Assembly (NCBI GenBank): GCA_964582295.1
Contig: CAZOQP010000002.1
Location: 8,563 to 72,562, forward strand
DNA length: 64,000 nucleotides
DNA from: an uncultured Candidatus Saccharibacteria bacterium
GTDB taxonomy: Bacteria > Patescibacteriota > Minisyncoccia > Phycocordibacterales > Zambryskibacteraceae
Direction: 5' to 3'
Below, piece by piece: positions 2,800-52,267 of this stretch (position 1 is its first letter; each line of letters begins with the position of its first letter). Both the position numbers and the translations under genes were made by a program. The notes under the pieces were generated by a model. The model saw nothing but the letters and a program-made list of their open reading frames with translations, ran no database searches and was not told the DNA's origin.

Positions 2800-4587
2800 T
2801 TATCTCTCGGCTTTTGAGCGGCCTTGCTGAGAGAGGATTTTTTTGCGAAGTCGCACGGATTTCGGAGTAACTTCCATATATTCGTCGTCCTGCATTATTT
2901 CCATCACGCGTTCTATTGAAAGTTTCCATGCTGGCGCTAAAAATATTCCTTCGTCGGAGCCCGAAGCGCGCATGTTGGTCAATTGTTTTCCTTTTGTCGG
3001 GTTCACATACAAGTCTTCGCCTTTTGAAGTGTTGCCGATAACCTGACCTTCATAAACTTCGTCCGATGGTTCCATATACAAAGTTCCTCTCTGCTGAAGA
3101 TTGTCCAAAGAGAAAGCCAAGCACTTGCCGGGCATCATGGATATCATGGCGCCGACCGCCTGACGCTTTATTTCTCCGGCGTAGGCGCGGAATTCAATGA
3201 AGCGGGATGAAAGAATACCGAGGCCTTTGGTGTCTATGATGAATTGGCCGCGAAAACCAAGAAGTCCGCGCGTAGGCATTTCAAATGTGAGGCGTTCCGT
3301 GGTGCCGCCGTGTTCACTTTTTACATTCATAAGAGAGCCGCGCCTTTCTGTCAGTTTGCCGATTATGGTTCCAGACATTTCTTTTGGCACATCTATAACT
3401 ACTTCTTCAAAAGGTTCGAATTTTACTCCGTCACGCTCCTCGGTGATAACTTCCGGTTCCGAGACCTGCAATTCAAAACCCTCGCGGCGCATATTTTCAA
3501 GAAGGATGCCGATGTGAAGTTCTCCGCGACCAGAAACTTTAAAACGGTCGTTCTCTGAAAAATCCACCTTGAGCCCCACGTTTACCTCTAGCTCTTTTTC
3601 AAGTCGATCGCGTATCTGGCGGGAGGTTACAAACTTTCCTTCACGGCCGCCGAAAGGGGAATCGTTCACCAAAAAGAAAAGGGAAATGGTCGGCTCATCT
3701 ATTTTAATGGCAGGCAATTGAGCCGCATTCTCATCAGTGGAAATGCTTTCGCCGATGAAGATGTCTGGAATGCCGGCTATCATCACGATGTCGCCTTCGC
3801 CTGCGTCATTTGTTTCCAGCCGAGAGATGCCTTCAAATGTGAAAAGCTTGGTAATCTTTCCTTTACGGGTAACACCTTCCGGGTTTTTCACGAAAACATC
3901 CTGACCGGTCCTGAATATTCCTTTATGAATGCGGCAGATGGCCATGCGCCCCAGGAAATTGTCATAAGCCAGGTTGAACGGCTGAGCAATGCCCGCTTCC
4001 GTATTTTCTTTTCCGCCAGAGGGTTTTACTTCTTCAATAATAGTATCTAAAAGGGGAGTGAGGTCGTTTGAAGTGTCTTCCATTTTTCTTTTTGCCCAAC
4101 CTTCGCGCCCAACTGCAAAAAGAGTAGTGAAATTGCACTGATCGTCTGTGGCTCCAAGTTCCAGGAAAAGCTCCAACACTTCGTTCTCCACATCTTTTAT
4201 GCGGGCCGCCGGCTTGTCTATTTTATTTATGATGACTATCGGCTTGAGGCCGAGCTCAAGGGATTTTTTCAGTACGAAGCGGGTTTGAGGCATGGGGCCT
4301 TCCTGTGCATCAACAACCAAAAGCACAGTGTCTACCGCACGAAGCACGCGTTCCACTTCAGATCCGAAATCCTGGTGGCCCGGAGTATCTACGATGTTTA
4401 TTTTCGTGTCTTTGTAGCGGATGGAGCAGTTTTTGGAATAAATAGTAATACCGCGCTCTTTTTCTAGGGCGTTTGAGTCCATGGATGTGCCCTCGGCGAC
4501 AGCCCCCGTTTGCTTCAAAATAGCATCGGTAAGGGTGGTCTTTCCGTGGTCCACGTGCGCGATAATTGCAATATTTCTTATTTCCAT
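2800..4587 (-). CDS. typA: translational GTPase TypA/BipA
   Basis: G1 motif [15 protein letters not shown] and NKID motifs; ~596 aa with EF-G-like domain order. Start placed at [18 protein letters not shown] rather than the upstream extension of the ORF track. Confidence 0.9.
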
Positions 4588-6214: not shown

Positions 6215-6742
6215 ATGCCAAGAAGCAGCGAAGAAAATAACTTTTTAGCCTCCTACGACGCCTACTCGGACGCTATTTTCCGCTTTTGCTATTTCAAAAC
6301 CAGGGAGTATGAACTTGCGAGAGATTTGACCCAGGATACCTTTATGAAGGCCTGGGACTATATCTCCAAAGATAAGGTAGTGGCCAATATGCGGGCATTT
6401 CTTTACCGCATTGCCACCAACCTTGTGATCGACTGGTATCGCAAAGGCAAAACAGAATCTCTTGAGGATCTTGCCGAAACCGGCTTTGATCCGGCCGACC
6501 CGTGCATCAATCAAGCCGACCAGGCGGAAATATCCTGGGCAATGAAGCTTCTTCACAAGCTTCCAGAAGAAGAGCAGACCCTTATCACGCTTCGATACGT
6601 GGAGGGTCTTTCCCCGCGCGAGATCGCAGAGCAGATAGGTGACATCAAAGAAAACGTAGTTTCCGTGCGAATTCACCGTGCCATGAAAAAATTAAAAACC
6701 CTCATTAGCGAAGGAACAAACAACACGCAATATAGCCCATGA
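6215..6742 (+). CDS. RNA polymerase sigma factor, ECF (sigma-70 group 4) family
   Basis: Region 2 (..DTFMKAWDYI...FLYRIATNLVIDWYRK) and region 4 HTH (..LRYVEGLSPREIAEQIGDIKENVVSVRIHRAMKKLK). Confidence 0.8.
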   Translation: MPRSSEENNFLASYDAYSDAIFRFCYFKTREYELARDLTQDTFMKAWDYISKDKVVANMRAFLYRIATNLVIDWYRKGKTESLEDLAETGFDPADPCINQADQAEISWAMKLLHKLPEEEQTLITLRYVEGLSPREIAEQIGDIKENVVSVRIHRAMKKLKTLISEGTNNTQYSP

Positions 6743-7410: not shown

Positions 7411-8043
7411 TTACACCTCTTCATCAACTCCTACGAATTCCGTAAACACCACTATTCTTTCGTCGTACATTCTTTGTGCCGGCATCCAGTCTCCGGTGCA
7501 AGTAATGAGATTCAGATGCGTTCCGTCTGACGAGAATACTTCTGCAGGTGCATCCTCGTAATCGTAACTTTTCTTTTTGGTTACCTTGAATTGAAAGACC
7601 GTGCCGTCTTCATCCACTATCTTCACAATGTCTCCCTCCACGAGTTTTTCCAGGTCATAGAAGACCGCCCGGGGTGTATTCCTGCCGTCCAGGTGCCCCG
7701 CTAAGACGGCGCTACCTTGTTCTCCGGGTCTCGGCCCCTCTTTGTACCAGGCGACATCCGTGTAGTTGGTTGGTATTCCCATATCTCCGTCCGCGGTGAG
7801 GCCCACATGCTGTACTTTTGTGTCCACTCCTATTTTAGGAATGATGAGCCGGGCGGGGAGGCCGGGCTTCTCTTCGGGATCTATATAACGAGAAGCGAGG
7901 GGCGCTTGAGGCCCCTCGCTTGTCGTTGTGATCTCGCTCCAGCGTGCCTGAAGGATTATGCTTCCTCCGACAGCTGCTACACCGATTACCCCAAGGATGA
8001 GAAGCCGCGCCCAGGATGACTTCACTCTTGAGTATTTTATCAT
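7411..8043 (-). CDS. sortase family transpeptidase
   Basis: N-terminal TM anchor and the catalytic LITCTG (TLxTC) motif near the C-terminus. His in the LAGH context. 210 aa. Confidence 0.8.
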   Translation of the reverse strand: MIKYSRVKSSWARLLILGVIGVAAVGGSIILQARWSEITTTSEGPQAPLASRYIDPEEKPGLPARLIIPKIGVDTKVQHVGLTADGDMGIPTNYTDVAWYKEGPRPGEQGSAVLAGHLDGRNTPRAVFYDLEKLVEGDIVKIVDEDGTVFQFKVTKKKSYDYEDAPAEVFSSDGTHLNLITCTGDWMPAQRMYDERIVVFTEFVGVDEEV

Positions 8044-11652: not shown

Positions 11653-14295
11653 CTATGCGGGGCGGATCATGTGCTTGATCTGTGCCTTATCCGAATTACC
11701 TTGTCTGCTCCTAAAGAACCACTTTGCTATCTCTATCAGCCCAATGTTTAAGAGGCCGATCAATGCAACGCCGATCACCCAGATGACAGGTAACGCCACT
11801 GTGTTGAAAACCGTTTGCAGTCCGGGTAAATAGATGGCCAGGGCCATAAGAATAATCCCGACGAGGATACCGCCGTTAAGGTATTTGTTTGAGAACAGCG
11901 GATACGAAAAAATACTTCTGTCCAAACTTCGCACTGAAAGAGCAACCAGCAATGTGTATGTTCCGAACGCCGCAAAGATAAATGTGCGCACGATGGTCTC
12001 GTCGTAGCCGAGTCGCATCAGGGCGTAATAAACAACAAAGAGCAGGGCACTTGTGGAAATGCCAATAACAAGGATAAGGAATTTCATGACCGGATCGAAG
12101 AGTTTTATCTTGCCCCTGTTGAGTGGCTTGTGCGCGAGGCCGTCCGGTTCTTTCTCGAACGCATAAGACATGGCCGGAAAACTATCGGTAAAGAAATTCA
12201 CCCAAAGGATTTGCAGTGCATTAAGTGGTAATGGCAGTCCGGTCAAAAGTGATCCGCCAATAAGAATAAGGCCGTCGGTAACATTAGAGAGCAGGTATAC
12301 GAGCACCTTGCGGATGTTTCCGAGTATCTGCCTACCTTCCTCAATAGCCGCGACAATGGTCTCAAAATTATCATCCAGAAGCACCAAGTCAGCAACACTT
12401 TGTGCCACTTCCGTGCCTGAACCCATAGCTATGCCTACGTCGGCTTGTTTGATGCTTGGTGCGTCGTTTACTCCGTCGCCTGTCATAGCCACTACTTCTC
12501 CCATCTCTTGGTAAAGTTTGGCGATGCGAAGTTTGTCGAACGGCGTGACACGGGAAATAACAGAGAGTTCCGGCAGTCTTTCTCGCAGGGCTTCTTCGGA
12601 CATTTTTGCGAGTTCAGATGCATCTAGTACTGAATGATCACCAAGCTTCATGCCTATTTCTCGGGCAACAGCGAGAGCTGTTCCCCGATGGTCGCCGGTT
12701 AGGATAACTGTTTTAATTCCAGCGTAGCCAACTCTCTCTATGGCGTGCTTGATACCCGGCCGAATAGGATCACGGAATGTAATAAGTCCGTTCCATGATA
12801 GGTGAGATGGTGACAGGTCTTTTGAAAATGAAAAACTCTCTGTGTTAGTAATCTCTTTAGATGCAACGCCGAGGACTCTTTCTCCGGAGAGTGCCAGAGA
12901 ATCAATTTGCAGAAGCATCGCTTCTTTTTCTTTTGCGCCAAGCGATGAATGACCGAGCAGAATATCGGGCGCCCCAAAAAAGACGAGAAGATGTTTGCCC
13001 GATTCCTTGACTAAGGATGCAGAGAATTTTTGTACCGCATTAAACGGCATGCTTTGAAGAACGTGCTCTTTGGCAGTGATATCGGCAAACGTCATTCCTC
13101 TAAGGCCGGCCGAACGAACGAGAGCGGTCTCCATGATCCTGCCATTCATGTGCCACGATTCCGGATCGTCATGCGGATTTTCAATGAGGACATTTGCGTT
13201 CGTCAAAGCTCTATCGAAAAGCTTTTGCTCACTCAACTCAAAAGGGATGATCTTTGACAGCACCATCTTAGCCATCGTCAAGGTTCCGGTTTTATCGGTG
13301 AGTATGATAGTGGCACTACCGAGAGCTTCGGCCGCAACGAGTTTGCGTACTACACCTTTTCGCTTCGCCATTCTCTCCACGCCGACAGCAAGGATAACCG
13401 TCATGGAGATTGGCAGTCCTTCAGGAATAGCAGATACAGCAATAGCAACGGAAGTGAGAAACATCTCAAAACCGGAGTATCCAGCAAGGATACCGATGCC
13501 AAATACAATAAAGGTCAAAACACCGAGTGCGATACTTGAATAGATACTGAAGTTTATGATGGCCTTCTGAAGCGGAGTTTTTTCGTTCTCGGAGATAGCG
13601 ATGAGCGAAGCGATCTTGCCGAGCTCGGTGTTTGAATCTGTACGGCAGACTATGGCGGCACACACTCCTTGGGTGACAAGAGTTCCGGCAAAGATCATGG
13701 AATTCTGATCCGAGAGCCCGGCTGATTCAGGCGATTTATCTGTTGATTTTGATACAGGTAAAGATTCACCGGTAAGCACCGCTTCGTCTACCTGGAAGTC
13801 GTTAATAAACATAACCCGAGCATCCGCTGGTACACGGTCGCCTTGTGCTAGTCGGATGATGTCGCCGGGAACAAGCTCTTCCGCATCAATTTCCCGTTCT
13901 TTGCCATCCCGAATAACTCGTGCTCTTTGTTTGAGGTAGGTTTTAAGTTCCGAAAGCGCACGTTCCGCTTTATTCTCCTGATAGAAGCCCAAGAGGGAAT
14001 TGACGATAACTGCAATGAAAATAAAGGTTGCATCACGGTAGTGCGAAATAGAGAGTGTAATGATACCGGCAACAATAAGAACAAGGATGAGAGGGCTTTT
14101 TAACTGATTTAGAAATATTTTTAATCCAACCGCTTTTTTGGAAGTACTGATAGTATTTTTCCCAAAAACAGAAAGGCGATCCTTAACCTCTTGTGAGGAT
14201 AATCCTTTTTCTGCATCTGTTTCAAATAACCGTGCAGTTTCTTCGGATGATAGATGCCAGAAGTTTTTGTTTTGTATTTGCGTATTTATAAGCAT
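11653..14295 (-). CDS. P-type cation-transporting ATPase (P2-type, Ca2+/Mg2+-like)
   Basis: DKTGTLT phosphorylation motif, the TGDGVNDAPSIKQADVGIAMG hinge motif, ~10 TM segments, 880 aa. Confidence 0.9.
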   Translation of the reverse strand: MLINTQIQNKNFWHLSSEETARLFETDAEKGLSSQEVKDRLSVFGKNTISTSKKAVGLKIFLNQLKSPLILVLIVAGIITLSISHYRDATFIFIAVIVNSLLGFYQENKAERALSELKTYLKQRARVIRDGKEREIDAEELVPGDIIRLAQGDRVPADARVMFINDFQVDEAVLTGESLPVSKSTDKSPESAGLSDQNSMIFAGTLVTQGVCAAIVCRTDSNTELGKIASLIAISENEKTPLQKAIINFSIYSSIALGVLTFIVFGIGILAGYSGFEMFLTSVAIAVSAIPEGLPISMTVILAVGVERMAKRKGVVRKLVAAEALGSATIILTDKTGTLTMAKMVLSKIIPFELSEQKLFDRALTNANVLIENPHDDPESWHMNGRIMETALVRSAGLRGMTFADITAKEHVLQSMPFNAVQKFSASLVKESGKHLLVFFGAPDILLGHSSLGAKEKEAMLLQIDSLALSGERVLGVASKEITNTESFSFSKDLSPSHLSWNGLITFRDPIRPGIKHAIERVGYAGIKTVILTGDHRGTALAVAREIGMKLGDHSVLDASELAKMSEEALRERLPELSVISRVTPFDKLRIAKLYQEMGEVVAMTGDGVNDAPSIKQADVGIAMGSGTEVAQSVADLVLLDDNFETIVAAIEEGRQILGNIRKVLVYLLSNVTDGLILIGGSLLTGLPLPLNALQILWVNFFTDSFPAMSYAFEKEPDGLAHKPLNRGKIKLFDPVMKFLILVIGISTSALLFVVYYALMRLGYDETIVRTFIFAAFGTYTLLVALSVRSLDRSIFSYPLFSNKYLNGGILVGIILMALAIYLPGLQTVFNTVALPVIWVIGVALIGLLNIGLIEIAKWFFRSRQGNSDKAQIKHMIRPA

Positions 14296-17502: not shown

Positions 17503-17574
17503 CTCCCCGGGTAGGATTCGAACCTACGACCAATCGCTTAACAGGCGACTGCGCTACCGCTGCGCCACCGGGGA
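17503..17574 (-). tRNA. tRNA-Asn (anticodon GTT)
   Basis: Cloverleaf folds by hand. Acceptor stem TCCCCGG/CCGGGGA, D-arm GCGC-AGCGGTA-GCGC, anticodon loop CTGTTAA, T-arm GTAGG-TTCGAAT-CCTAC, discriminator G. Confidence 0.85.
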
Positions 17575-17810
17575 ATATTTTTTATGAACTGTCTTCCGCG
17601 ATAACTTTTTAGAGATTTTTCCCTCTTTAATGCGGAAGCTCTGTCGCTATAAACTTCTGAATATATGACTATCCATAAACCGTCATATTGGGAAGTGTAG
17701 CCCTTAAACTTATGTTCGTTATGAAGATCTAATCTTTGGTCTAAATCCTTTGTTTGGCCAATGTAGATCTTATTGTGTTTAGCGTTATGGATTGCGTAAA
17801 CAGTAAACAT
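17538..17810 (-). CDS. GIY-YIG nuclease-superfamily protein (small stand-alone YhbQ/COG2827-like)
   Basis: VYAIHNAKHNKIYIGQTKDLDQRLDLHN... (GIY...YIG motif plus conserved Arg/Glu region). Its 3' end overlaps the first 37 nt of tRNA-Asn. Confidence 0.7.
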   Translation of the reverse strand: MFTVYAIHNAKHNKIYIGQTKDLDQRLDLHNEHKFKGYTSQYDGLWIVIYSEVYSDRASALKREKSLKSYRGRQFIKNIPRWRSGSAVAC

Positions 17811-17943: not shown

Positions 17944-18168
17944 ATGCTTATACATGTGAAGGTTTCAGCAGGTGAGAAAAGGGAAAAATTTGAAGAAATT
18001 TCGGATACTCGTTTTGTGATATCTGTGAAGGAAAAAGCGGAAAGGAACATGGCCAACAGGCGCGTGATGGCCATACTGGCCGGACATTTCAAGGTTCCTG
18101 AAAGATCCGTAAGGGTAATAAGTGGTCACCATTCACCGTCTAAAATTATTGAAATAATAGGCAAATGA
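17944..18168 (+). CDS. DUF167 (YggU-like) protein
   Basis: 74 aa; ...VKVSAGEKREKFEEI...FVISVKEKAERNMANRRVMAILAGHFKV pattern characteristic of the YggU family. Confidence 0.55.
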   Translation: MLIHVKVSAGEKREKFEEISDTRFVISVKEKAERNMANRRVMAILAGHFKVPERSVRVISGHHSPSKIIEIIGK

Positions 18169-18180
18169 TATAATCGGGGT

Positions 18181-18591
18181 ATGAAATATTCATCATATGT
18201 GAAGGGGATGGAGAATACGCCGGCCATAGAAGCTTATTTAGATAAACGTTTGAAAGCGCTCCGGAAAGTGGTGAAGGATCCGGCGGCGCATGCGCAGGTG
18301 GAGATAGGGAAGACTACAAATCATCACAAGTCGGGAGACATTTTCCGGGCGGAAATAAAATTGATGATGTCCGGCAAGGAATTTTATGCGGCAGTGGAAA
18401 AGGATGACCTTTACGCGGCCATAGATGAAATGAGGGACGAGATAATCGCGGAGGTTAAAAAATTCAAAGGAAAATCTGAAACAGCTTTTCGTCGCGGCGC
18501 ACGAAGAATGAAAAGTATTTTGAAAGGGCTTGATCCTCGAGATTACAACTACAAGGATTGGAAGTTTTGGGAGAAGTGGCGGAGGAAATAA
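18181..18591 (+). CDS. hpf: ribosome hibernation promoting factor (HPF/RaiA family, long form)
   Basis: ...AIEAYLDKRLKALRKVV...DIFRAEIKLMMSGKEFYAAVEKDDLYAAIDEMRDEI... matches the sigma-54-modulation/S30AE fold signature. Confidence 0.8.
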   Translation: MKYSSYVKGMENTPAIEAYLDKRLKALRKVVKDPAAHAQVEIGKTTNHHKSGDIFRAEIKLMMSGKEFYAAVEKDDLYAAIDEMRDEIIAEVKKFKGKSETAFRRGARRMKSILKGLDPRDYNYKDWKFWEKWRRK

Positions 18592-18595
18592 AAAG

Positions 18596-18737
18596 TCGCT
18601 CGGGGTGTTTCTTGAAAATGAAAAGTACGCACTCGAACACGAAAAGAGACCACTCCGGGGCGTTTGCCCAAGTCTTAGTCTCTTTTCGTGTTCGAGTGCT
18701 TTACTCAAAAAACATTTTCAGGAAACACCCCTCGCTC
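18596..18737. repeat. intergenic palindromic repeat element, family member A (142 bp, bounded by TCGCTC hexamers)
   Basis: Starts 5 nt after the hpf stop. Outer arms gggtgtttcttgaaaatg / cattttcaggaaacaccc; inner perfect 22-bp arms gcactcgaacacgaaaagagac / gtctcttttcgtgttcgagtgc. Shares GAAAAG..GTACGCA with members B and D. Confidence 0.7.
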
Positions 18738-18764
18738 CTAAGTTGAGAAAAAATATAAACAAAG

Positions 18765-18806
18765 AGGCCGCGCGACGGATGTCGCGCGGCCTTACTGTTT
18801 TTTTTA
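18765..18806. terminator. intrinsic terminator (bidirectional)
   Basis: aggccgcgcgac-ggat-gtcgcgcggcct followed by tactgtttttttt. Confidence 0.6.
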
Positions 18807-19274
18807 TCCTATTTTCAATTGAACTCTCTCCTCTTTGCTCAATCTACTCTCCATTAGCTCGGCCGCAGTTTGAGCGAGCTCCGGGTTCCTTGCAATGACA
18901 GCTGCAAAGCGGATTTCAGCCCAACCTCTTTGGAGTTTGCACGTGAAGTAAAAGATGAGGGTTTCTTTATGCTCTGAAGGCAGTACTTCCTCAGGCAACC
19001 GCCCGACTTCCTCCATGAGAATATGTACACCCTCGAGAGCAGTTGCAAGTAGTGGTGGATGCATATTCGCAATTACTTGCTCAAACACGAGGTTGAGACT
19101 GAGCAGGTGTTTCCGATGACGCGGATCTGCCAGGTTCTTCCAAGCTTCAAGCGCTCTGATCAGATCTTCTGAGTCGCGGTTTACCACTCCATGCCTCCGT
19201 CGGCAAAAAGTGAATGTTCGGTTCCTTGAATGTTGTAGCACCCTTTCTCTCAAATCACAACTACATAACTCCAC
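18804..19274 (-). CDS. hypothetical protein (156 aa)
   Basis: Intact ORF starting 14 nt inside the 3' end of fmt. No recognisable motif. Confidence 0.35.
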   Translation of the reverse strand: MELCSCDLRERVLQHSRNRTFTFCRRRHGVVNRDSEDLIRALEAWKNLADPRHRKHLLSLNLVFEQVIANMHPPLLATALEGVHILMEEVGRLPEEVLPSEHKETLIFYFTCKLQRGWAEIRFAAVIARNPELAQTAAELMESRLSKEERVQLKIG

Positions 19275-20109
19275 GCAAAAAGTCCTGCCACGACATTTCT
19301 TTGCGCCCTTCGGGTGTTACGCGGTCTAAAACCAGCACCCCTTCTTTTATATGGGCTTCTTTTATTTTCACCCGCACCTTGCCGTTCTTGGTGCTGTGGA
19401 AAAAATATGCCCCAGGCCATTTTTCAAAGGCGTGTATCTTTCGCAGATTTTTTATCGGCCCGTCATTCATATCCATCTCCGCATCTTCCTTTGATATTTT
19501 TTTTGTGAAAGTGGCGAGGGTGTGATCCTGCGTTTGGGCTTTGATATTTTCATCCATCCAATCGGGAATAACGGATGCGAGAAGTTTTCCGCCTTCACTC
19601 CCTAAAATTTTCTCTGCCTCCGTGTATGCGGGCGGCTCGTCTCCAAAAACAACCGCCTTTTGAGCAAGAATGGGGCCATGATCCATTTCCTCGTCTATCA
19701 AAATTATACTAACCCCCGGTTTTTCTCCGGAAAGGATAGTGCATTGTATAGGGGCCGGCCCGCGCAGTTTCGGTAAAAGAGACGGATGCACGTTCAGGGT
19801 GCCTCGGGTGGGAATATCAAATACTTCCCTGGGAATTATTTTTCCGTATGAAGCTACAACGCCAAGTTGTGGGTTATAAGCTTTAAGTTGCAATACAAAA
19901 TCCGTATCCAATTTCTGCGGCTGAAGCACCGGGATATTGTGTTTGCCAGCCCACACTTTTGCAGGCGGGGGAGTGATGGTGAGGCCGCGCCCCTGCGGAT
20001 TATCCTCGGCACAAACTATCACCACAGGAACGAAGCCCCCTTTTTCAAGTTCATTCAAAACAGGAATAGCTATTGCATCCGATCCAAAAAAAGCAAAACG
20101 TACACTCAT
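19261..20109 (-). CDS. fmt: methionyl-tRNA formyltransferase
   Basis: N-terminal MSVRFAFFGSDAIAIPVLNEL and the GTLNVHPSLLPKLRG formyltransferase motif. Start at MSVRF, which overlaps the def stop by ATGA. Confidence 0.85.
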   Translation of the reverse strand: MSVRFAFFGSDAIAIPVLNELEKGGFVPVVIVCAEDNPQGRGLTITPPPAKVWAGKHNIPVLQPQKLDTDFVLQLKAYNPQLGVVASYGKIIPREVFDIPTRGTLNVHPSLLPKLRGPAPIQCTILSGEKPGVSIILIDEEMDHGPILAQKAVVFGDEPPAYTEAEKILGSEGGKLLASVIPDWMDENIKAQTQDHTLATFTKKISKEDAEMDMNDGPIKNLRKIHAFEKWPGAYFFHSTKNGKVRVKIKEAHIKEGVLVLDRVTPEGRKEMSWQDFLRGVM

Positions 20110-20645
20110 CGCTTTTTGCTTTTTACCGGAACGGGTTTCCACTCATGAAGGTCCGAGGCCTTGTCGGTGAAAAGCACTCCGTCCAAATGGTCACTCTCAT
20201 GCTGAAATATTTGTGCCACCAGGCCGGAAGCCCCGCGGCTGAATTTTTTACCTTTTTCGTCATATGCTTCCAGTTCCACTTTGTCCGAGCGTTTCACTTT
20301 TCCGTAAAGCCAGCGCACCGAAAGACACCCCTCTTCCATGGCTTTTTTAATACGTGAGCTTCTTAGGATCTTGGGATTTATGAAAACTTCGTCCGGATAT
20401 TGCGATTTCGCTTCATCTTCATTCGCAAGAATAGCCCTTACCCGTCCGGAAACCACGAAGATACGCAGAGGCACACCTATTTGGGGCGCGGCAATGGCTA
20501 CTCCGTCGCTTTCACCCTCCAGTGCTTTTTTCATATCTTTAAGTATCTTTTGTATGCGAGAAGAGGGAATTTCCTTCACGGAAACAGGCTCCGCCTTCTG
20601 GCGGAGTACGAGGGTCTCTTCCTCCTGAAAAATCCTGGCAGGCAT
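20106..20645 (-). CDS. def: peptide deformylase
   Basis: PDF motifs GVAIAAPQIG, EGCLSV and HESDHLDG. def-fmt gene order. Confidence 0.85.
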   Translation of the reverse strand: MPARIFQEEETLVLRQKAEPVSVKEIPSSRIQKILKDMKKALEGESDGVAIAAPQIGVPLRIFVVSGRVRAILANEDEAKSQYPDEVFINPKILRSSRIKKAMEEGCLSVRWLYGKVKRSDKVELEAYDEKGKKFSRGASGLVAQIFQHESDHLDGVLFTDKASDLHEWKPVPVKSKKR

Positions 20646-20685
20646 ATATTTAAGCTTACAGGTTCTCTTCTTAAGCTGCTAGTAT

Positions 20686-22566
20686 TTACAAAAGATCTTC
20701 AGGATCCACGGAAACGGCGAATTGCGGAGGCAGGGACATGAGGCGCATTACTGTGGTTTTGTCCGGCCATTCATTTGGCACTTCTATTTTTATAAGCCCG
20801 TGAAAACGATGCAAGCGCCCGCCTGCTCTCACTTTCACAATGTGCACCGTTTCGCCGAAAAGTTCCCGCACCAGTTCACTGTCTTTGGCGGCACGCGAAG
20901 GGCTGCCTTCCCATGCAATTTTTATGAAAAGGGAAAAAGGCGGGAATGCGAATTTTCTTCTTTCATCTATCTCACGCTCAAAGAATGGCAGAAAATTCCC
21001 TTCGGCCGCTGCAGAGAAAACAGGGTTCTCCGGACTCCTTGTTTGGAATATCACTTTCTCTCTACCCAGTGCACGAATGCTTGTAAGGATTGAAAGCAGT
21101 CTTTCATTCACACGAAAATCAGGCATTCCGATAAGCGAATCTGCAGAAACGACCGCCGCTACTTCAACAGGGCTTCTCACATAACGCAAAGCCATCTCGG
21201 TGCCGATAAGGATACCTCCGCGAGTATGTAAAAAATCATCTGCTGTGCGCATGGCTTTTGCTGGTGTAGGGGCGGCATCTTTATTCAGGTGGAAAATGAA
21301 AGGGTGGGGAATAATACGGCGGAGCTCCTTTTCAATAGTTTCAACTCCAATTCCCAAAGTGGCAAGCCGCCAGCCACCGCAATGCGAACACTCGTCTTTT
21401 GCTGGGCGTTTTTCACCGCACTTGTGGCAAAGAAAAAAATGATTGGCGCTCTCGTGAAGCACTAGTGGAGCTCCGCATACCGGGCAGGAGACGACCATTT
21501 CGCAATCACTGCACACAGTGAGAGGTGCCAAGCCTTTGCGGGCGCCAAAAAGGAAAACCCTTTTCCCGGCTTCAACTGCAGAAATAATAGTGCGCTCCAA
21601 ACGGTTAGAGAATATTTTGAAGCCCTCCTCGTCACCCTCTTGCCTTACCATGGAAGAAATGGAAACATCGGCGGTAGTGGGGGAGCGCATGTTCATGTGG
21701 CCCCATTCGTTGTATTCGTTCTCTTTTACTTTGTACAAAGTCTCAACACGCAGTATCTCGCTTCCGTAAATGATGCGGGCGCAATATTCATGTGCGAGCA
21801 TTTTTGCGAATGCCCGAAAATCTAAGAAAGGACGCGAAAGAGTGTTGTATGCGCGTGAGTTCTCTCTTTCGCAGAGAACTGTTTCGGTGTCCTCGCGCAT
21901 AAGGCAAAGGTAGGGAGGAGTGGCGATGATGAGGGCGGGGTGAGTTGGGTCATCCACTATCTTCAGGCGTTTGGTGAGTTCCTTTGCATTGCGAGGCGCT
22001 GGGAAAACAACAGTGAATTCCTCAATGCCGCGCGAAAGCTCTTTGTATGCGTATTCCGCATCCTCGGCCGTCGGTACCAGAAAAAAGAATGAGCGCTTGC
22101 GGGCGAAAGTTTCGCGTATAAGAGAGCGGTATTCAGCAAAGCGCTCCTCCGAGCCTGCCTGGAATGCGCTTACGTCTGCAACAAGCGTGCATTTGGGTTC
22201 AATGGGAACGACATTTCTTTTTGCTTCAAGGACTGCTTGAGGCAAAAGAACACTCAAGATGCTTGCAGTGCTTTGAGCGGAGTATTCCGAAAATGCGTCA
22301 GCCGCACGCAGGAAGGCGCGGCTGACGCACATCTTTCCTGCTGCTCCCGTGATTTTTTTAAGTGCAAAAGGGCCGGAGCGTATTTCCATGCGGGCTTTTT
22401 CCGCAGGATGGGTTTCCACTACCAGAGCCCTTACTGTTCTTGCGCGCAGAGGCACCTTCACGATAGTACCCGGCTCTATATCCGTGCCTGAAAAATAAGT
22501 AAGGGTTTCCGCGCCGGCACCTTTGGCGAAAGTTCTTGTGAGTGGTAATACGGAGACTGTGAACAT
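20686..22566 (-). CDS. priA: primosomal protein N' (PriA) homologue with degenerate helicase ATPase motifs
   Basis: PriA-type N-terminus (VSVLPL...LTYFSGTDIEPGTIVKVPLRARTVRALVVE) and the Cys-rich zinc region CSDCEMVVSCPVCG...CHKCGEKRP...CSHCGG. The positions where GxGKT and DExH are expected read GSEERFAEY and LMREDTE instead. Confidence 0.7.
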   Translation of the reverse strand: MFTVSVLPLTRTFAKGAGAETLTYFSGTDIEPGTIVKVPLRARTVRALVVETHPAEKARMEIRSGPFALKKITGAAGKMCVSRAFLRAADAFSEYSAQSTASILSVLLPQAVLEAKRNVVPIEPKCTLVADVSAFQAGSEERFAEYRSLIRETFARKRSFFFLVPTAEDAEYAYKELSRGIEEFTVVFPAPRNAKELTKRLKIVDDPTHPALIIATPPYLCLMREDTETVLCERENSRAYNTLSRPFLDFRAFAKMLAHEYCARIIYGSEILRVETLYKVKENEYNEWGHMNMRSPTTADVSISSMVRQEGDEEGFKIFSNRLERTIISAVEAGKRVFLFGARKGLAPLTVCSDCEMVVSCPVCGAPLVLHESANHFFLCHKCGEKRPAKDECSHCGGWRLATLGIGVETIEKELRRIIPHPFIFHLNKDAAPTPAKAMRTADDFLHTRGGILIGTEMALRYVRSPVEVAAVVSADSLIGMPDFRVNERLLSILTSIRALGREKVIFQTRSPENPVFSAAAEGNFLPFFEREIDERRKFAFPPFSLFIKIAWEGSPSRAAKDSELVRELFGETVHIVKVRAGGRLHRFHGLIKIEVPNEWPDKTTVMRLMSLPPQFAVSVDPEDLL

Positions 22567-22668
22567 GGTGATAGCTTATAGCTTTTAGCTACTAGCTTCC
22601 AGCTTATTCGGGGTAAAAGAAGGATAACTGGCGGATTATTACAAAAAAGCTTAAGCTGTAGGCCACAA

Positions 22669-23682
22669 ATGGCCTTTTTTACCAAAAAACTAGGTATTGA
22701 TCTCGGCACTACGAGCGTTCTTGTGTATGTGCCGGGAAAGGGGATTATCTTGAATGAACCGTCTGTTGTGGCCGTGTCTGAAGAGGACAGGAAAATTTTG
22801 GCGATAGGTGCGGAGGCAAAAAAAATGATAGGCAAGACGCCTGAAAACATCATTGCTTATCGCCCGATGAAAGACGGAGTCATTGCGGATTATCGTGTGA
22901 CGGAAGCCATGCTCCGATATTTTATCGGCAAAGCTCTCGGTAAATTTTCATTCATAAAGCCGGATGTTTTGATATCCGTTCCCGCTGGTGTTACCTCAAC
23001 TGAAAGGCGGGCTGTCATTGAAGCGGCTGTGAAAGCGGGGGCAAAGAACGCATATGTTGTGAAAGAGCCGATCCTTGCGGCTATCGGCGCAGGTATTCCC
23101 ATTCAGGAGCCGTCGGGCCAAATGATAGTTGATATTGGCGGAGGGACGACCGACGTGGCGGTTATTTCGCTCGGCGGCATCGTGGCTTCTACGTCGGTTA
23201 AGTGTGCTGGCAATAAGATAGATGCAGCTATCACCGACCATATGAAGAAAACTTATAATCTGGCGATTGGTGATCGCACGGCGGAAAATATAAAAATAAA
23301 TATCGGCTCTGCTGTGCCGGTGGAGGAGGAACTTTCAATGCAGGTGAAAGGAAGGGATTACGTTTCGGGTTTGCCCCGCTCGGTTGAAGTGAAAACAAAT
23401 GAGGTGGTGAAGGCCATTGGGAAAGAGCTTCGCGATATGGTGAAAGCTATAAAGGATGTGCTGCAGGAAACTCCGCCAGAACTCGCTTCAGACATTATTG
23501 ATAAAGGAATAGTTATGACAGGCGGCACTTCCCAGCTTCGCCATTTGCCCGAACTCGTTTTTCGCCGCACCGGAGTGAAAGCGGTGATGGCAAAGGATGC
23601 TTTGTATTGTGTGGTGAATGGGACGGGTATAGCACTAGAGCATTTGGATGCTTATAAGAAGGCGGTGATTTCTAAAAGATAA
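22669..23682 (+). CDS. actin-like rod-shape protein, MreB family (paralogue 1, 337 aa)
   Basis: LGIDLGTTSVLVYV, NEPSVVAV, DIGGGTTDVAVISLGGIV motifs. Confidence 0.8.
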   Translation: MAFFTKKLGIDLGTTSVLVYVPGKGIILNEPSVVAVSEEDRKILAIGAEAKKMIGKTPENIIAYRPMKDGVIADYRVTEAMLRYFIGKALGKFSFIKPDVLISVPAGVTSTERRAVIEAAVKAGAKNAYVVKEPILAAIGAGIPIQEPSGQMIVDIGGGTTDVAVISLGGIVASTSVKCAGNKIDAAITDHMKKTYNLAIGDRTAENIKINIGSAVPVEEELSMQVKGRDYVSGLPRSVEVKTNEVVKAIGKELRDMVKAIKDVLQETPPELASDIIDKGIVMTGGTSQLRHLPELVFRRTGVKAVMAKDALYCVVNGTGIALEHLDAYKKAVISKR

Positions 23683-23685
23683 TTT

Positions 23686-23791
23686 TCGCTCGGGGTGATG
23701 ACGAAAAGAGTACGCATAAAAATCTGCTGATTTTTTGCTCACCCTCGCGCCGTCGCGCTGCACAGCCTCTTTTCGTCATCACTCCTCGCTC
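23686..23791. repeat. intergenic palindromic repeat element, family member B (106 bp, TCGCTC-bounded)
   Basis: Starts 4 nt after the mreB-like stop. 19-bp arms gggtgatgacgaaaagag / ctcttttcgtcatcactcc. 105/106 identical to the reverse complement of member C at 32213-32318. Confidence 0.75.
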
Positions 23792-23856
23792 TGAAGTAAA
23801 AGTCGGCTCGCTTCAAAGAAAAAACAATCAATTTGTAAAAAGGGTAAAATGGGGGA

Positions 23857-30005: not shown

Positions 30006-30257
30006 ATGAGAAAAAATTATTGGTTGCGGGGTATTATTTTTGCGGGAGTTTTAATACTTTCTTTTTTCGTACCGTGGCAGCTGACGGCTCTTTTAGTAAT
30101 TCTCGCTTCTCTTGCTGTGCCATACCCACTAGAATACGCGATTATCACTATAGGGGTGTTTGGCATCGGCTTGTTATTCTATTTATTCTTGACGACGGCT
30201 CTTTTGGGCGGCTTCGTGAGGTCTCGTACTCGTATCGGAAGTCTCTTGCCGCTATAA
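30006..30257 (+). CDS. mreD: putative MreD (small polytopic membrane protein)
   Basis: 83 aa, fully hydrophobic, sitting between mreC and mrdA. Confidence 0.45.
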   Translation: MRKNYWLRGIIFAGVLILSFFVPWQLTALLVILASLAVPYPLEYAIITIGVFGIGLLFYLFLTTALLGGFVRSRTRIGSLLPL

Positions 30258-30265
30258 TTGCGGGC

Positions 30266-32002
30266 ATGAGGTTTTCCTTCAAAAATTTATTCAAAAAGCG
30301 TGGTCCCGGCCACGAAATTGCTCCGGAAGAAATATTGGCGGACGCTTCAAACCTCATCCATACAGACACCGGTAACATGGAGGGACACCTTATTCTTCCT
30401 ATAGAAAGGTCCTCATACGTTCTCCTTGTTGCTGTTCTTGTGTTTTTGACCCTCTTTGCGACAGTGCGCCTTTTTAATCTTCAGGTAGTGCGCGGGCAGG
30501 AGCTCGCTAAAAGGAGCGCCACCAACTCTTTGGATAAAACGATTGTCTTTGCGAACCGCGGGCTTATTTTTGACAGAACAGGTGAAGTGGTGGCAGGAAA
30601 TGCACCAGCTCAAAGATGGAGTGAAAGAAAATATTTGCCTCTCCCCGGTCTTTCGGTTATGGTCGGATATGTGGGATATCCGAAATCAGATTCAAGCGGC
30701 AATTTATACGACACAGCACTTGCCGGACGCGATGGGCTTGAAGAATATTTTGATGATGTACTTGCCGGAAGGAACGGCACTCTCATACGCGAAACAAATG
30801 CTTTGGGGGAGCTTGTTTCTGAAAGCACTGTGGAGAATCCGCGTGATGGGGTGAACATTACTCTCTCAATAGATGCGAAAGTTACCAGCCAGCTTTTCAC
30901 AGAACTCAAGGCACTTGCGGAGGAAAGAGGGTACGCGGGCGGAGCTGGTATTGTGATTGATATAGAGACCGGAGAAGTACTCGCTCTCACTTCATATCCT
31001 GAATACGACCACCAGGTGATGGTAGATGGAAAAGATAACAATGCCATTTCGGCATTTCTCGGGAATAAGAATAATCCTTTCCTTGACCGTGCATCCCAGG
31101 GTCTTTACATCCCGGGTTCTATCATGAAGCCCTACATGGCAGTAGGTGCGCTTGAGGAGAATATTGTTGATCCGCTTAAAAATTTCATGGCGAACGGAGA
31201 GATACGTGTTCCTAATCCTTATGATCCTAAGAACCCGACTATTTTCAAAGACTGGAAAGTGCACGGAATGGTTGATATGCGGAGGGCGCTTGCTGTTTCT
31301 TCAAACGTTTATTTTTTCACAATTGGTGCCGGCTATGAGGGGCAGAGGGGATTAGGTATTTCCAAGATAGAAGAATATATGCGCATGTTCGGATTCGGAG
31401 AAAAAACTGGTATTGAAATAGATGGAGAGGAAGAGGGTAACGTGCCGAGCCCCGAATGGAAGGAGGAAACTTTTCCGGATGATACTACCTGGCGCCTCGG
31501 AGATACTTACAATAGTTCTATCGGGCAATACGGATTTTCGATAACACCCATTCAGGCCGTACGGGCGACAGCGGCCCTCGCGAACGGCGGGTTTTTAGTG
31601 ACACCTACTCTTATAAAAGATGACGAGCAAAATCAGGATCTCCAAAAAGTGCTTTCCCAAAAAGGGGTGGAGTTAAAAAGAGAAAAAGAAACTGTTCCTG
31701 TGGCCCGTGAAAATATTCGCATAGTGCAGGAGGGAATGAGAAAGGCCGTGCTTGAGGGAACCGCTTCCGGATTGAATATTCCTGCCGTCGCCGTGGCCGC
31801 CAAGACGGGTACTGCAGAGCTTGGTGTTACCAAGCAGGCCGTCAACTCATGGGTTATGGGATATTTCCCTTATCAAAATCCGCGTTATGCATTTGCTATT
31901 GCCATGGAAAAGGGGAGCCGCTCAAACACTGTGGGTGCCACTTATGCCATGCGCCGCCTTCTTGAATGGATGGCTATTTATGCGCCGGAATATTTAAAAT
32001 AA
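30266..32002 (+). CDS. mrdA: penicillin-binding protein 2 (class B transpeptidase)
   Basis: SxxK (GSIMKP), SxN (SSNVYF) and KTGTA motifs. Start at MRFSF (30266); the longer ORF from 30020 overlaps mreD out of frame. Confidence 0.85.
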   Translation: MRFSFKNLFKKRGPGHEIAPEEILADASNLIHTDTGNMEGHLILPIERSSYVLLVAVLVFLTLFATVRLFNLQVVRGQELAKRSATNSLDKTIVFANRGLIFDRTGEVVAGNAPAQRWSERKYLPLPGLSVMVGYVGYPKSDSSGNLYDTALAGRDGLEEYFDDVLAGRNGTLIRETNALGELVSESTVENPRDGVNITLSIDAKVTSQLFTELKALAEERGYAGGAGIVIDIETGEVLALTSYPEYDHQVMVDGKDNNAISAFLGNKNNPFLDRASQGLYIPGSIMKPYMAVGALEENIVDPLKNFMANGEIRVPNPYDPKNPTIFKDWKVHGMVDMRRALAVSSNVYFFTIGAGYEGQRGLGISKIEEYMRMFGFGEKTGIEIDGEEEGNVPSPEWKEETFPDDTTWRLGDTYNSSIGQYGFSITPIQAVRATAALANGGFLVTPTLIKDDEQNQDLQKVLSQKGVELKREKETVPVARENIRIVQEGMRKAVLEGTASGLNIPAVAVAAKTGTAELGVTKQAVNSWVMGYFPYQNPRYAFAIAMEKGSRSNTVGATYAMRRLLEWMAIYAPEYLK

Positions 32003-32006
32003 AAAG

Positions 32007-32194
32007 TCGCTCAGATAACACCCTTTTTCAAACAGCTGCCGCTCCGGCGGTTACGAAATCATAGTCGTCTCATAACGTAAAATGGGCAACTCGTCGGCAC
32101 AATCCGCCTCCTCAAACACTCCCATTTTCCTACTCAACTCCTTGATTTCTAAAACCACCTCCCGCTTGTGTGAAAAAGGGTATTATCTTCGCTC
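32007..32194. repeat. intergenic palindromic repeat element, family member C1 (188 bp, TCGCTC-bounded)
   Basis: Starts 4 nt after the mrdA stop. Terminal arms agataacaccctttttcaaacag / ctt(g)tgtgaaaaagggtattatct. Starts aaaagtcgctc like member A. Confidence 0.6.
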
Positions 32195-32212
32195 CTTAAG
32201 GATTATAACTTA

Positions 32213-32318
32213 GAGCGAGGGGTGATGACGAAAAGAGGCTGTGCAGCGCGACGGCGCGAGGGTGAGCAAAAAATCAGCAGATTTTTATGCGTACTCTTTT
32301 CGTCATCACCCCGAGCGA
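32213..32318. repeat. intergenic palindromic repeat element, family member C (inverted copy of B; GAGCGA-bounded)
   Basis: 105/106 identical to the reverse complement of 23686-23791. Flanks outside the hexamers are unrelated between the two copies. Lies 18 nt after member C1. Confidence 0.75.
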
Positions 32319-32399
32319 CTACTGTTTGAAAAATGCTGCATTTTGAGCGGTCTTCATTGACAGGACGCCCCTTTACTCTATAATGCCGAGGAATTAAAT

Positions 32400-32867
32400 A
32401 TGAAGGAAGAAGGCACATACCTCACCAAAGAAAAATTTGATGAGTTCAAGACGGAACTCGATCACCTTACTCATGTAAGGCGCAAAGAAGTTGCTGAAAG
32501 TTTGGAATACGCAAAAGCTTTGGGAGATCTTTCGGAGAATGCAGAGTATCACGAAGCCCGCGATATGCAGGCGTCAATTGAAGACAGGATAGCCAAACTG
32601 GAGCAGATATTGAAATCCGCCGTCATTATAAAAGACCACGATACTGCCAAGGCATCTATTGGCTCACAGGTCACCATCCGCAAGGAAGGCGAAAAAGAAA
32701 AGAAGGTCTTCACTTTGGTGAGCCCGGAAGAAGCCGATCCGCGCGAAGGCAAGATCTCTATAAAATCTCCATTAGGCGGGGCAATGTTTGAAAAGAAGAA
32801 AGGGGAATCTTTTTCCTTCAAAACTCCGTCAGGCATCATGACCTACGAAATTCTTGGTATAGAATAG
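32400..32867 (+). CDS. greA: transcription elongation factor GreA
   Basis: N-terminal coiled coil (...LTHVRRKEVAESLEYAKALGDLSENAEYHEARD...) and C-terminal FKBP-like domain. 155 aa. Confidence 0.9.
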   Translation: MKEEGTYLTKEKFDEFKTELDHLTHVRRKEVAESLEYAKALGDLSENAEYHEARDMQASIEDRIAKLEQILKSAVIIKDHDTAKASIGSQVTIRKEGEKEKKVFTLVSPEEADPREGKISIKSPLGGAMFEKKKGESFSFKTPSGIMTYEILGIE

Positions 32868-51112: not shown

Positions 51113-52156
51113 ATGACGACGCTTCTTATTACGCTCGTGGGACTAATGCTTCTCATTCAGCTCGCGGTTTTTTGGCGAATGTCGCAAGGAAAAAAAGATG
51201 CGGGGCCGGAGGGGTTGATGCTTCTTCAAAACCAGCTTTCCCATCTCACTAAATCTATAGATGAACGCCTTTCCGATTCTGCCCGCACGATGTTTGACAC
51301 AGTGGAAAAGCAGACCGACCAATCCATGAAAATAATCCGTGATGTAACGGAGCGCTTGACGAAGATAGATGAGACAAGTAAGCAGTTCACATCTTTTGCC
51401 GCGCAACTTCAGGACCTGCAGGATGTTCTGAAGAACCCGAAGCAGAGGGGGATTTTAGGGGAATATTATCTGGAAACTCTTTTGAAAAATGTTCTGCCAC
51501 CAGATGGATATGCCATGCAGTACGCTTTCAAGGACGGCACGGTGGTTGATGCGGCGGTTTTCGTGAAGGAAAGGATAATTCCTGTTGACTCAAAATTTTC
51601 GCTCGACAACTACCGCAGGGTGCTTGAGGAAAAGGACGAAAACCGCCGCAAGGAGCTTGAAAAACTTTTTGTGAACGATCTCAAGCTTCGCATCAGCGAA
51701 ACTGCAAAATACATAAAGCCGGCCGAAGGCACCATGGATTTTGCTTTCATGTTTATTCCACATGAAGCTATTTATTACGATCTCCTGGTGAATAAAGTGG
51801 GGGAGATAACAGAAGAAACAGAAAATCTCATAGAACGGGCAGCGCGCAAATATCACGTTATCATCGTCTCGCCGACATCATTCCTTGCATACCTTCAGAC
51901 CGTTCTTCAGGGATTACGCTCGCTTCAGGTGGAGGAGACGGCGAAAGAGATAATAAAAAATGTGGACGATTTGCGGAAGCACCTTGCGGCTTATTCCGAA
52001 TATCACAACAAGCTCGGAGTAGCTTTGGGAACTGTGGTGAACCACTACGGAAAATCCTCAAGCGAGTTCAAAAAGATAGACAAGGACGTTTTGCGTATTA
52101 CCGAAGAGCGTATAGGTATTACTTTGCCTGAAATAGAAAGGCCGGAAGTGGAGTAA
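51113..52156 (+). CDS. rmuC: DNA recombination protein RmuC
   Basis: N-terminal TM, long coiled coil, and the C-terminal RmuC nuclease-like domain (..FMFIPHEAIYYDLL..). Confidence 0.75.
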   Translation: MTTLLITLVGLMLLIQLAVFWRMSQGKKDAGPEGLMLLQNQLSHLTKSIDERLSDSARTMFDTVEKQTDQSMKIIRDVTERLTKIDETSKQFTSFAAQLQDLQDVLKNPKQRGILGEYYLETLLKNVLPPDGYAMQYAFKDGTVVDAAVFVKERIIPVDSKFSLDNYRRVLEEKDENRRKELEKLFVNDLKLRISETAKYIKPAEGTMDFAFMFIPHEAIYYDLLVNKVGEITEETENLIERAARKYHVIIVSPTSFLAYLQTVLQGLRSLQVEETAKEIIKNVDDLRKHLAAYSEYHNKLGVALGTVVNHYGKSSSEFKKIDKDVLRITEERIGITLPEIERPEVE

Positions 52157-52160
52157 GAAG

Positions 52161-52267
52161 GCGCTCGGCGTGTTGCCGAAAAGGGTACGCATAAAAATCT
52201 GCTGATTTTTTGCTCACTCTCAAACCGTCGTTTTCCGAGAGCCCCTTTTCGGCAGCACCCCTCGCTT
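52161..52267. repeat. intergenic palindromic repeat element, family member D (about 107 bp, CGCTC/TCGCT-bounded)
   Basis: Starts 5 nt after the rmuC stop. The central 35 nt (gtacgcataaaaatctgctgattttttgctcac) are identical to member B. The arms differ from B but remain mutually complementary (ggcgtgttgccgaaaaggg / cccttttcggcagcacccc). Confidence 0.7.

Follow-up and report, generated by a model that had tools for sequence, protein, structure and literature searches.

Two different hairpin-forming elements stacked between mrdA and greA in a Patescibacteria genome, and the branched palindrome family of one of them

The gene mrdA, encoding the penicillin-binding protein PBP2, is located in a 64,000-nucleotide stretch (here denoted the window; G+C = 0.47) of contig CAZOQP010000002.1 from an uncultured member of the Patescibacteria. 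Upstream of mrdA are mreB, mreC and a small mreD-like open reading frame (ORF), and downstream of it are greA and lysS. The spacer between mrdA and greA is 397 nucleotides (nt) long and is occupied by two different palindromic elements, C1 and an inverted copy of a palindrome denoted B (this copy is B2). The first-pass annotation placed C1 4 nt past the mrdA stop codon and the inverted B copy behind it after 18 nt, and these coordinates are exact (Table 1). The greA promoter is intact 3' of both elements, and a TATAAT equivalent is found upstream of greA in four related lineages as well (L003, L005, L007 and L010). No terminator-like site was detected in 31800-32600 and there is no U-tract at C1 or B2; as no intrinsic terminator separates mrdA from greA, both elements are probably transcribed together with mrdA, C1 in sense and B2 in antisense. 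The minus-strand ORF listed across B2 has no Pfam family, and its product is not on record as a called gene; it is an artefact of the open frame across B2, in agreement with the earlier doubt that it was a gene. We also noticed a promoter-like site, TCGTCA-18-TATAAT (10/12; 32231-32202, minus strand), made by an arm of B2 together with the spacer and directed antisense into C1 and mrdA.

Table 1. Positions of the elements and neighbouring features; coordinates are those of the window unless a locus is named.
Feature	Position	Strand	Description
mrdA (PBP2)	30020-32002	+	ORF; PF00905 and PF03717; C-terminus ...PEYLK* aligns with relatives
mrdA stop codon	32000-32002	+	TAA; followed by AAAG, then by TCGCTC of C1 at 32007
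C1	32007-32194	+	188-nt orphan hairpin element; ends TCGCTC (32007) and TCGCTC (32189-32194)
Spacer	32195-32212		18 nt, CTTAAGGATTATAACTTA; right-flank motifs of C1 (CTTAAGG...) and of B2 (CTAAGTT..., minus strand), tail to tail
71-amino-acid ORF across B2	32203-32418	-	runs over B2 and over the promoter and start codon of greA
B2	32213-32318	- (canonical orientation)	106 nt, GAGCGA...GAGCGA; P1 arms 32219-32237 and 32294-32312
Third, degenerate C-type arm	32319-32349		adjoins B2; complementary to the C1 left arm
greA promoter	32357-32384	+	TTGACA-16-TATAAT; 12/12 consensus positions; intact 3' of C1 and B2
Element A	18596-18737	+	starts 4 nt after hpf; termini as in C1 and B; z = -10
B1	23686-23791	+	starts 3 nt after the stop of an actin/MreB-like gene (22669-23682); 82.8 bits
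B3	52161-52267	+	P3 intact; starts 4 nt after an rmuC-like gene (51113-52156); 103 bits
L003 hairpins with shared apex	3287-3356, 12870-12938		
L003 decayed copies	12800-12850, 12950-12985		beside one of the L003 hairpins
L007 hairpin	3289-3361		after the actin-like gene; perfect 21-bp stem; flanks AAGTCACGAG...CTCGCTCTAAGTT; right-end motif as in A and B2

The closest PBP2 proteins in a collection of 5.8 billion proteins are at most 69% identical and are labelled Minisyncoccia, Parcubacteria or Patescibacteria. One protein is an exception to this ceiling, a 100% match from the Logan assembly of SRR6868922. The organism thus belongs to the Patescibacteria and lacks a close relative among sequenced genomes. 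This independent assembly reproduces two outer junctions of the stack, those of mrdA with the C1 left arm (L002) and of the B2 arm with greA (L001); the inner C1-B2 junction is not among them, and the Logan contigs end inside the elements, as repeats break assemblies. The 1.45 kb of extra source-genome sequence obtained in this way contains no further element.

C1 and B2 are built differently. The 19-nt arms of B2 are 100% complementary, whereas the 31-nt arms of C1 (32004-32034 and 32167-32197; within C1 about 32013-32034 and 32167-32188) are 81% complementary and enclose an interior of 132 nt that is not palindromic. The predicted folds have energies of -33.3 kcal/mol for B2 (z = -7.3) and -28.9 kcal/mol for C1 (z = -5.6), and in both cases 0 of 200 shuffles were as good. 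The 19-mer of the B arm has 5 matches in the window, where 0.02 are expected. In inverted orientation B2 aligns with 23686-23797 (98%) and with 52156-52266 (83%), the sites of the copies B1 and B3. B1 and B2 differ at 1 position in 106 nt, a near-identity that stands beside a nearest known genome only 69% identical in PBP2. They have TAAGT in common (5 nt past the right hexamer) and nothing in common before the left hexamer, and hence the stretch that is copied seems to begin at the left hexamer and to end a few bases past the right one. A structural scan of the window matched five sites only, namely A (18597-18736), B1 (23687-23790), C1 (32008-32193), B2 (32214-32317, minus strand) and B3 (52162-52266); the pattern required CGCTC followed by a stem of 12 nt, an interior of at most ~300 nt, the complement of the stem and TCGCT. 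B is present in several copies in this genome, with three copies and the related element A in 64 kb; C1 is single-copy in the window.

C1 and element A have the same 12 of 12 nt at the left end (AAAAAGTCGCTC) and the same TCGCTCCT(T)AAG at the right, so that their common termini read AAAAAGTCGCTC...TCGCTCCTTAAG; no other similarity of C1 to A or B was found. The window contains no second copy of C1, the C1 arm pattern gave 0 matches in JGI metagenomes and viral contigs, a BLAST search with the C1 interior against all fetched loci returned nothing, and the ORFs internal to C1 are not on record in any assembly. By these comparisons C1 is an orphan that is joined to the family by its termini alone, and not a repeat as far as testable. 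The first-pass annotation had counted both elements as members of one family, which holds well for the multi-copy B2 and, for C1, reaches no further than the termini. A hairpin at 7887-7927 (AGCGAGGGGC...GCCCCTCGCT) also has the family end motif, CCCCTCGCT, but lies inside a sortase-like ORF (7411-8043, minus strand).

The alignment of B copies (A2) revealed a conserved three-way junction. A variable closing stem, P1, is followed by the junction strand GUAC, the hairpin P2, the junction strand UCA and the hairpin P3. P2 reads GCA-U-AA..C-UGCU-G..UUUGC, with an invariant base (GCA-U-AA/UUUGC) and a UGCU loop; in P3 the lower part, P3a, is CUCUC:GAGAG, and P3b varies between GCGC:GCGC, AAAC:GUUU and AGAC:GUCU. 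In this structure 89.7% of cells are paired as against 72% in column shuffles, 21 of 35 pairs are changed on both sides, and the observed values were reached by 0 of 500 shuffles. Pairing falls to 38-56% in controls with slid partners. RNAalifold predicts the identical fold without being given it, and B3 compared with the copy at locus L015 shows compensatory changes in both the outer stem and the inner hairpin. Element A keeps the B junction (GTAC-GCA...TGC) without P3 and with an expanded inner hairpin, forming a nested palindrome in which a 19-bp outer stem surrounds an inner stem of 22 perfect bp. The outer stem of A is homologous to P1 of a copy in another genome (L085:4303-4414). Downstream of element A lies a separate, canonical and bidirectional terminator (18752-18805).

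A covariance model built for B (R1) was run on the window and on the fetched loci. Besides B1 and B3 it finds B2 with 82.8 bits (E = 3.6e-18, 32223-32308, minus strand) and nothing above 17 bits elsewhere in the window; in the other loci it finds 12 copies with 37.7-105.5 bits. The copies fall into two subtypes, one with P3 intact and a TGCACAG variant without P3a pairing, to which B1 and B2 belong. The window contains both of them, as does the L085 contig, indicating that the subtypes are old. Rfam 15 holds no matching family for B: only two tRNAs in the window pass the gathering threshold, and B2, A and the copy at L087 give only sub-threshold matches to generic miRNA hairpins.

We scanned 185,579 GTDB species representatives with the B end pattern; the source genome is not in this set, as an exact pattern with three matches in the window did not retrieve it. 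The 66 loci obtained are nearly all chance matches in G+C-rich genomes, and only L015 and L042 are real. L015 is a B copy after murJ in the related metagenome-assembled genome JBAQOA01, the same genome as L005. L042 is a Saccharibacteria contig with two B-like hairpins, one at 658-744 (45.8 bits with R1) and one at 6462-6549 (L042b) that has the exact ends CGCTCGGGGTG...CACCCCTCGCT and a UGCU-loop hairpin; Paceibacterota may thus not be the only hosts of the family. The core GTACGCA..CTGCTG..TGCTCAC was found at 18 loci when JGI metagenomes were scanned for it, with the full element in 10 (L077, L078, L079, L080, L083, L085 with two copies, L087, L090 and L093). In viral contigs the B core and the B ends gave one match each, both without the structure and hence due to chance. 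The contigs with a B core range in G+C from 0.39 to 0.64, and that of L079 (0.63) is Paceibacterota/Parcubacteria by its DnaG. The neighbours of B-core elements and A differ from locus to locus (murJ, rpsI, secY, a GT2 glycosyltransferase, murB/rnr, hpf for A, rmuC, the actin-like gene and, for L079, a dnaG-proximal site). Two relatives, with DnaG 86% and 73% identical, carry no element at the site orthologous to that of the L079 copy. Together, the presence of B at non-orthologous loci of Paceibacterota genomes and its absence from orthologous sites indicate that B moves or is copied.

The elements have a conserved asymmetric end motif, (G/T)CGCTC-stem...stem-TCGCT(C/T), which is maintained from Minisyncoccia to a Saccharibacteria contig. 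Stacking had been attributed in the first-pass annotation to an insertion hotspot or to sequential insertion into the same target hexamer. The shared target hexamer is not borne out, as the hexamer variants are inherited with the element subfamily: the pair GCGCTC (left) and TCGCTT (right) is common to B3, L015 and L042b, which come from three genomes and from loci unrelated to one another, showing that the hexamers are copied with the element and not made from the target. TCGCTC is likewise rejected as an enriched word, with 40 occurrences in the window against 36 expected. In the folded hairpin the hexamers face each other below P1, where they make up two G-C pairs together with a 2x2 internal loop of pyrimidines, and are not a duplicated target. 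The flanks of the copies have only a loose TAAG-like similarity; in 10 copies read by eye they contain stop-like triplets, as TAA or TAG precedes the left motif by 0-4 purine-rich nt in all 10, and TAA, TAG or TGA follows the right motif after 0-2 nt in 9. These triplets may stem from a short duplicated target or belong to the element. The sequence TCGCTC(C)TAAGTT is common to A, B2 and the hairpin of lineage L007.

To describe the position of the elements relative to genes, we surveyed 18 hairpins, 14 of the B-core, A or C1 type and 4 of other or divergent families (L007x, L003 E1/E2 and L042b). Eleven of the 18 begin 1-5 nt past the stop of a co-oriented ORF of at least 140 amino acids. Two copies, B2 and L079, are antisense. 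Readthrough into the elements, or a conserved peptide encoded by them, was rejected, since the phase differs between copies (GTC GCT CGG versus TCG CTC GGG) and the covariation in P2 alters amino acids. Nor do the stems appear to be guides for, or copies of, other sequence: short-BLAST searches with ten stems against all fetched DNA matched only the stems themselves. The cumulative GC skew of the window has a minimum near 18-22 kb, with A to its left and B1, C1 and B3 to its right; all four nevertheless run in the sense of the gene upstream, which speaks weakly for a link of orientation with gene direction over one with replication direction. The skew minimum (~18000-22700) coincides with a gene-strand switch between priA (minus strand) and the mreB-like gene (plus strand) at 22566/22669, a possible replication origin.

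The same site was compared in the four related lineages, whose PBP2 proteins are 64-69% identical. The mrdA-greA interval is 44-47 nt in L007 and L010 and holds a doxX gene in L003 and L005, and neither C1 nor B is present in any of the four. The 397-nt spacer was considered as a decayed doxX and this was rejected, as tblastn gave no match. The 44-47-nt spacer of the relatives is almost wholly greA promoter and ribosome-binding site, which leaves only the first bases past the stop codon free; the placement of the elements at stop codons is thus simplest explained by selection.

Other gene ends in these lineages are occupied in a similar manner. Where B1 has its orthologous site in the relatives, unrelated hairpins are present in L007 and L003 and none in L005 and L010. 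The greA-lysS spacer of L003 contains a stack of three copies of another hairpin, of which one is perfect and two are decayed. These data support repeated colonisation of gene ends in the lineage, and the mrdA-greA stack would be an ordinary consequence of repeats piling up at one of few permissive sites. Of the hotspot proposal mentioned above, it is this repeated, sequential colonisation of gene ends that stands. In the window itself, 23797-23820 (AAAAGTCGGCTCGCTTCAAAG), directly after B1, looks like a left terminus fused to a right one without a body. A collapsed element or a solo site may account for it, and it would be a second case of stacking in the window.

The stack contains traces of its history. 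The third arm next to B2 is part of an inverted repeat (I1) in which 32008-32047 is 75% complementary to 32310-32349 over 40 nt, including a 12-nt exact match, CTGTTTGAAAAA; it is probably the remnant of an earlier C-type element and hints at an older or larger one at this site. Judged by divergence, B2 looks young and C1 old: the single difference between B2 and B1 and the perfect stem of B2, as against the 81% of the C1 arms, fit sequential arrival. An older C-type element (C1 plus the leftover third arm), possibly two insertions, would have come first and decayed, and B2 would have landed recently beside it, tail to tail. One or more old C-type insertions followed by a recent B insertion is the most economical history.

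We therefore read C1 and B2 as two separately acquired, non-coding, hairpin-forming dispersed repeats of the REP, ERIC or MITE (miniature inverted-repeat transposable element) kind in the 3' untranslated stretch of the mreBCD-mrdA operon, with a probability of roughly 0.6. The elements are most likely non-autonomous, mobile hairpin repeats similar to REP or MITE. We propose that the element would be recognised as a folded single strand by an enzyme supplied in trans, for which an HUH/Y1-type or other hairpin-recognising nuclease is the best guess; the near-strict Watson-Crick pairing suits DNA hairpins better than RNA. Survival of copies would be nearly confined to the short stretch just past a stop codon; in such compact genomes the remainder of a 20-50-nt spacer is occupied by the promoter and ribosome-binding site of the next gene.

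Several observations weigh against reading C1 and B2 as dispersed mobile repeats. Among the window ORFs scanned, about half of them judged only by eye or synteny, there is no transposase, HUH protein, integrase, recombinase, reverse transcriptase, tnpA/tnpB or RAYT (PF01797), nor a parent autonomous insertion sequence (IS) with matching ends. C1 has no second copy anywhere searched, so that its mobility is deduced from its termini alone. No clear target-site duplication was found. Long inverted arms are present; the outermost hexamers are direct (TCGCTC...TCGCTC), so that the tips are not inverted. Where a copy has a clear neighbour, it mostly runs sense to that upstream gene (about 13 of 15), element A on the other side of the GC-skew minimum included; this would also fit selection at the RNA level. 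In addition, the core is conserved and the closing stem variable, the opposite of classical MITEs and REPINs and not explained by simple cut-or-copy-and-paste. The cores of L079 (6905-7010) and L093 (4183-4296) are identical at 60 of 60 positions, with only 11 of 28 in P1, and the L003 hairpins E1 and E2 carry an identical 27-nt apex (TCACGGAGAGATATACCGCGCTCCTAA) on unrelated perfect 21-bp stems. L077 and L093 have the core plus ~10 nt on each side in common and then diverge; from the comparison of L079, L093 and L077 the copied unit seems to be without a fixed boundary. Identical cores on unrelated stems could result from gene conversion confined to the core, from insertion into existing palindromes or from stems made at insertion.

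These last observations have led us to consider, as a tentative idea that we think unlikely, that the B core represents a new class of mobile, structured modules that is specific to Patescibacteria. The true heritable unit would be a three-way junction of ~66 nt (GGG-UAC-P2-UCA-P3-CCCC), gaining or inserting into locus-specific closing stems right after stop codons, and would act either as the folded single-stranded substrate of an undescribed hairpin-recognising enzyme or as a 3' untranslated region (3'-UTR) RNA that modulates termination or mRNA decay. If this were so, the identical cores on unrelated stems (L079/L093 and L003 E1/E2) would reflect mechanism and not drift.

The alternative that B, and perhaps C1, is chiefly a functional 3'-UTR RNA that binds a protein, blocks 3'-5' exonucleases or disturbs terminating ribosomes, with spread being secondary, is in our view rather unlikely. 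Liang, Rudd and Deutscher reportedly found in 2015 that REP sequences of E. coli interfere with terminating ribosomes when they lie no more than 15 nt from a stop codon. The unpaired GUAC and UCA, the UGCU loop and a bulged U are invariant, as an RNA function would have it, and the stems covary across hosts with G+C of 0.39-0.64; the ~13 of 15 sense copies start 1-5 nt after the stop, element A lies between a stop and a separate terminator and hence within the transcript, and no terminator separates mrdA from greA. However, of 300 cells 265 are Watson-Crick pairs, 4 are G-T and 8 are A-C, so that G-U is not in excess over A-C. B2 and L079 are antisense to their neighbours, yet B2 is intact with a perfect stem, and the subtype of B1 and B2 has lost the P3a pairing. 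Furthermore, the density of ~4 copies in 64 kb resembles that of a mobile repeat, as do the pair with 99% identity and the differences in presence or absence, and no Rfam family matches.

Far less probable is that the elements are single-strand recombination sites, attC-like or Xer/dif-like, for a tyrosine recombinase, with cassette-like upstream genes. A gene followed immediately by an imperfect palindrome of 60-190 nt does recall integron cassettes, and the invariant GGTACGCATAA of the core (e.g. 52183-52193) equals the XerC arm of some gamma-proteobacterial dif sites, such as that of Sodalis, AGTACGCATAA (PMC2731167). The ends, however, do not fit the attC R''/R' boxes (RYYYAAC...GTTRRRY), the genes upstream (mrdA, secY, rpsI, murJ and hpf) have housekeeping functions and lie in conserved synteny, and no recombinase is found among the ORFs scanned. 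The dif match came from an after-the-fact string search and no XerD arm follows it, and it was treated as a coincidence.

Even less credit can be given to C1 and B2 being a single composite element, inserted or inherited as a unit. The two are adjacent, and the arm at 32319-32349 pairs with the C1 left arm, so that 32008-32349 can be drawn as one large hairpin; against this, B stands alone at 23686, at 52161 and in other genomes, no other C1 was found, and the apparent ages differ, as complementarity is 100% in the B2 stem, 81% in the C1 arms and 75% in the outer arms. The independence of the two elements claimed in the first-pass annotation is in this way upheld, and the fixed composite unit it had named as the competing view does not fit a B that occurs without C1. 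Ordinary intrinsic terminators or chance hairpins, suggested by the gene-end position and the stable stems, are the least probable of all, given the missing U-tracts and terminator-like sites in 31800-32600, the canonical terminator that element A has after it, and repeat statistics and fold z-scores that exclude chance.

Two other features of the window were observed. A 90-amino-acid GIY-YIG nuclease ORF (17538-17810, minus strand) overlaps a tRNA gene (17503-17574) on the same strand. A 915-amino-acid TraG/VirD4-like coupling ATPase (PF12696, PF02534; 47360-50107) is located among housekeeping genes, and a homologue is found at the edge of the locus from the relative L010.

The literature we searched contains no description of the B core or of dispersed palindromic repeats in Patescibacteria (also termed candidate phyla radiation, CPR), and the three-way-junction repeat family in Paceibacterota appears to be undescribed. 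The genomes of these bacteria are tiny and densely packed. The B family would provide a handle on the genome dynamics of uncultivated bacteria and would explain spurious small ORFs in annotations, and it is a practical cause of assembly breaks; it is also a candidate for a new pairing of a structured nucleic acid with a protein.

Among known systems, REP, BIME and REPIN sequences of Proteobacteria, which are moved by RAYT, a Y1 HUH transposase, are alike in being short, non-coding, multi-copy palindromes, extragenic but transcribed and often a few nt from stop codons, with conserved stem mismatches, no transposase of their own and long evolutionary persistence. They differ in that REP has a 5' GTAG next to the hairpin, whereas B elements have CGCTC...TCGCT, and in that REPINs conserve the arms and vary the loop, whereas B conserves the apical three-way junction and varies the closing stem. 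The hosts differ as well, Proteobacteria for REP and REPIN and the phylum Patescibacteria for B, with no RAYT seen in the window. The 127-bp enterobacterial ERIC/IRU and the Correia/NEMIS elements of Neisseria are likewise imperfect palindromes of ~100-150 nt in transcribed intergenic DNA, are kept across genera with presence/absence at orthologous sites and are sometimes stacked or nested. They have conserved terminal inverted repeats and a TA duplication, whereas B, A and C1 have direct hexamers and no clear duplication, and B has a branched conserved core.

Classical bacterial MITEs, derived from IS630, IS5 or IS200/605 (including palindrome-associated transposable elements, PATEs), resemble B in being small, non-autonomous, multi-copy and hairpin-forming. 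For B, however, no parent IS with matching ends is known and the terminal inverted repeats stop short of the tips; MITEs also need no compensatory evolution of internal hairpins, which P2 and P3 of B show. The IS200/IS605-derived PATE has two different subterminal hairpins, a fixed 4-5-nt left target and no duplication; B has one large hairpin, with a left flank of a stop triplet plus 0-4 purine-rich nt in the 10 copies read. Integron attC sites share with the elements an imperfect palindrome right after a stop codon that acts, or for B would act, as a folded single strand and is more conserved in structure than in stem sequence. They come with R''/R' boxes, an integrase and cassettes, none of which is seen in the window, where the genes are not cassettes, and the apex is variable in attC and conserved in B.

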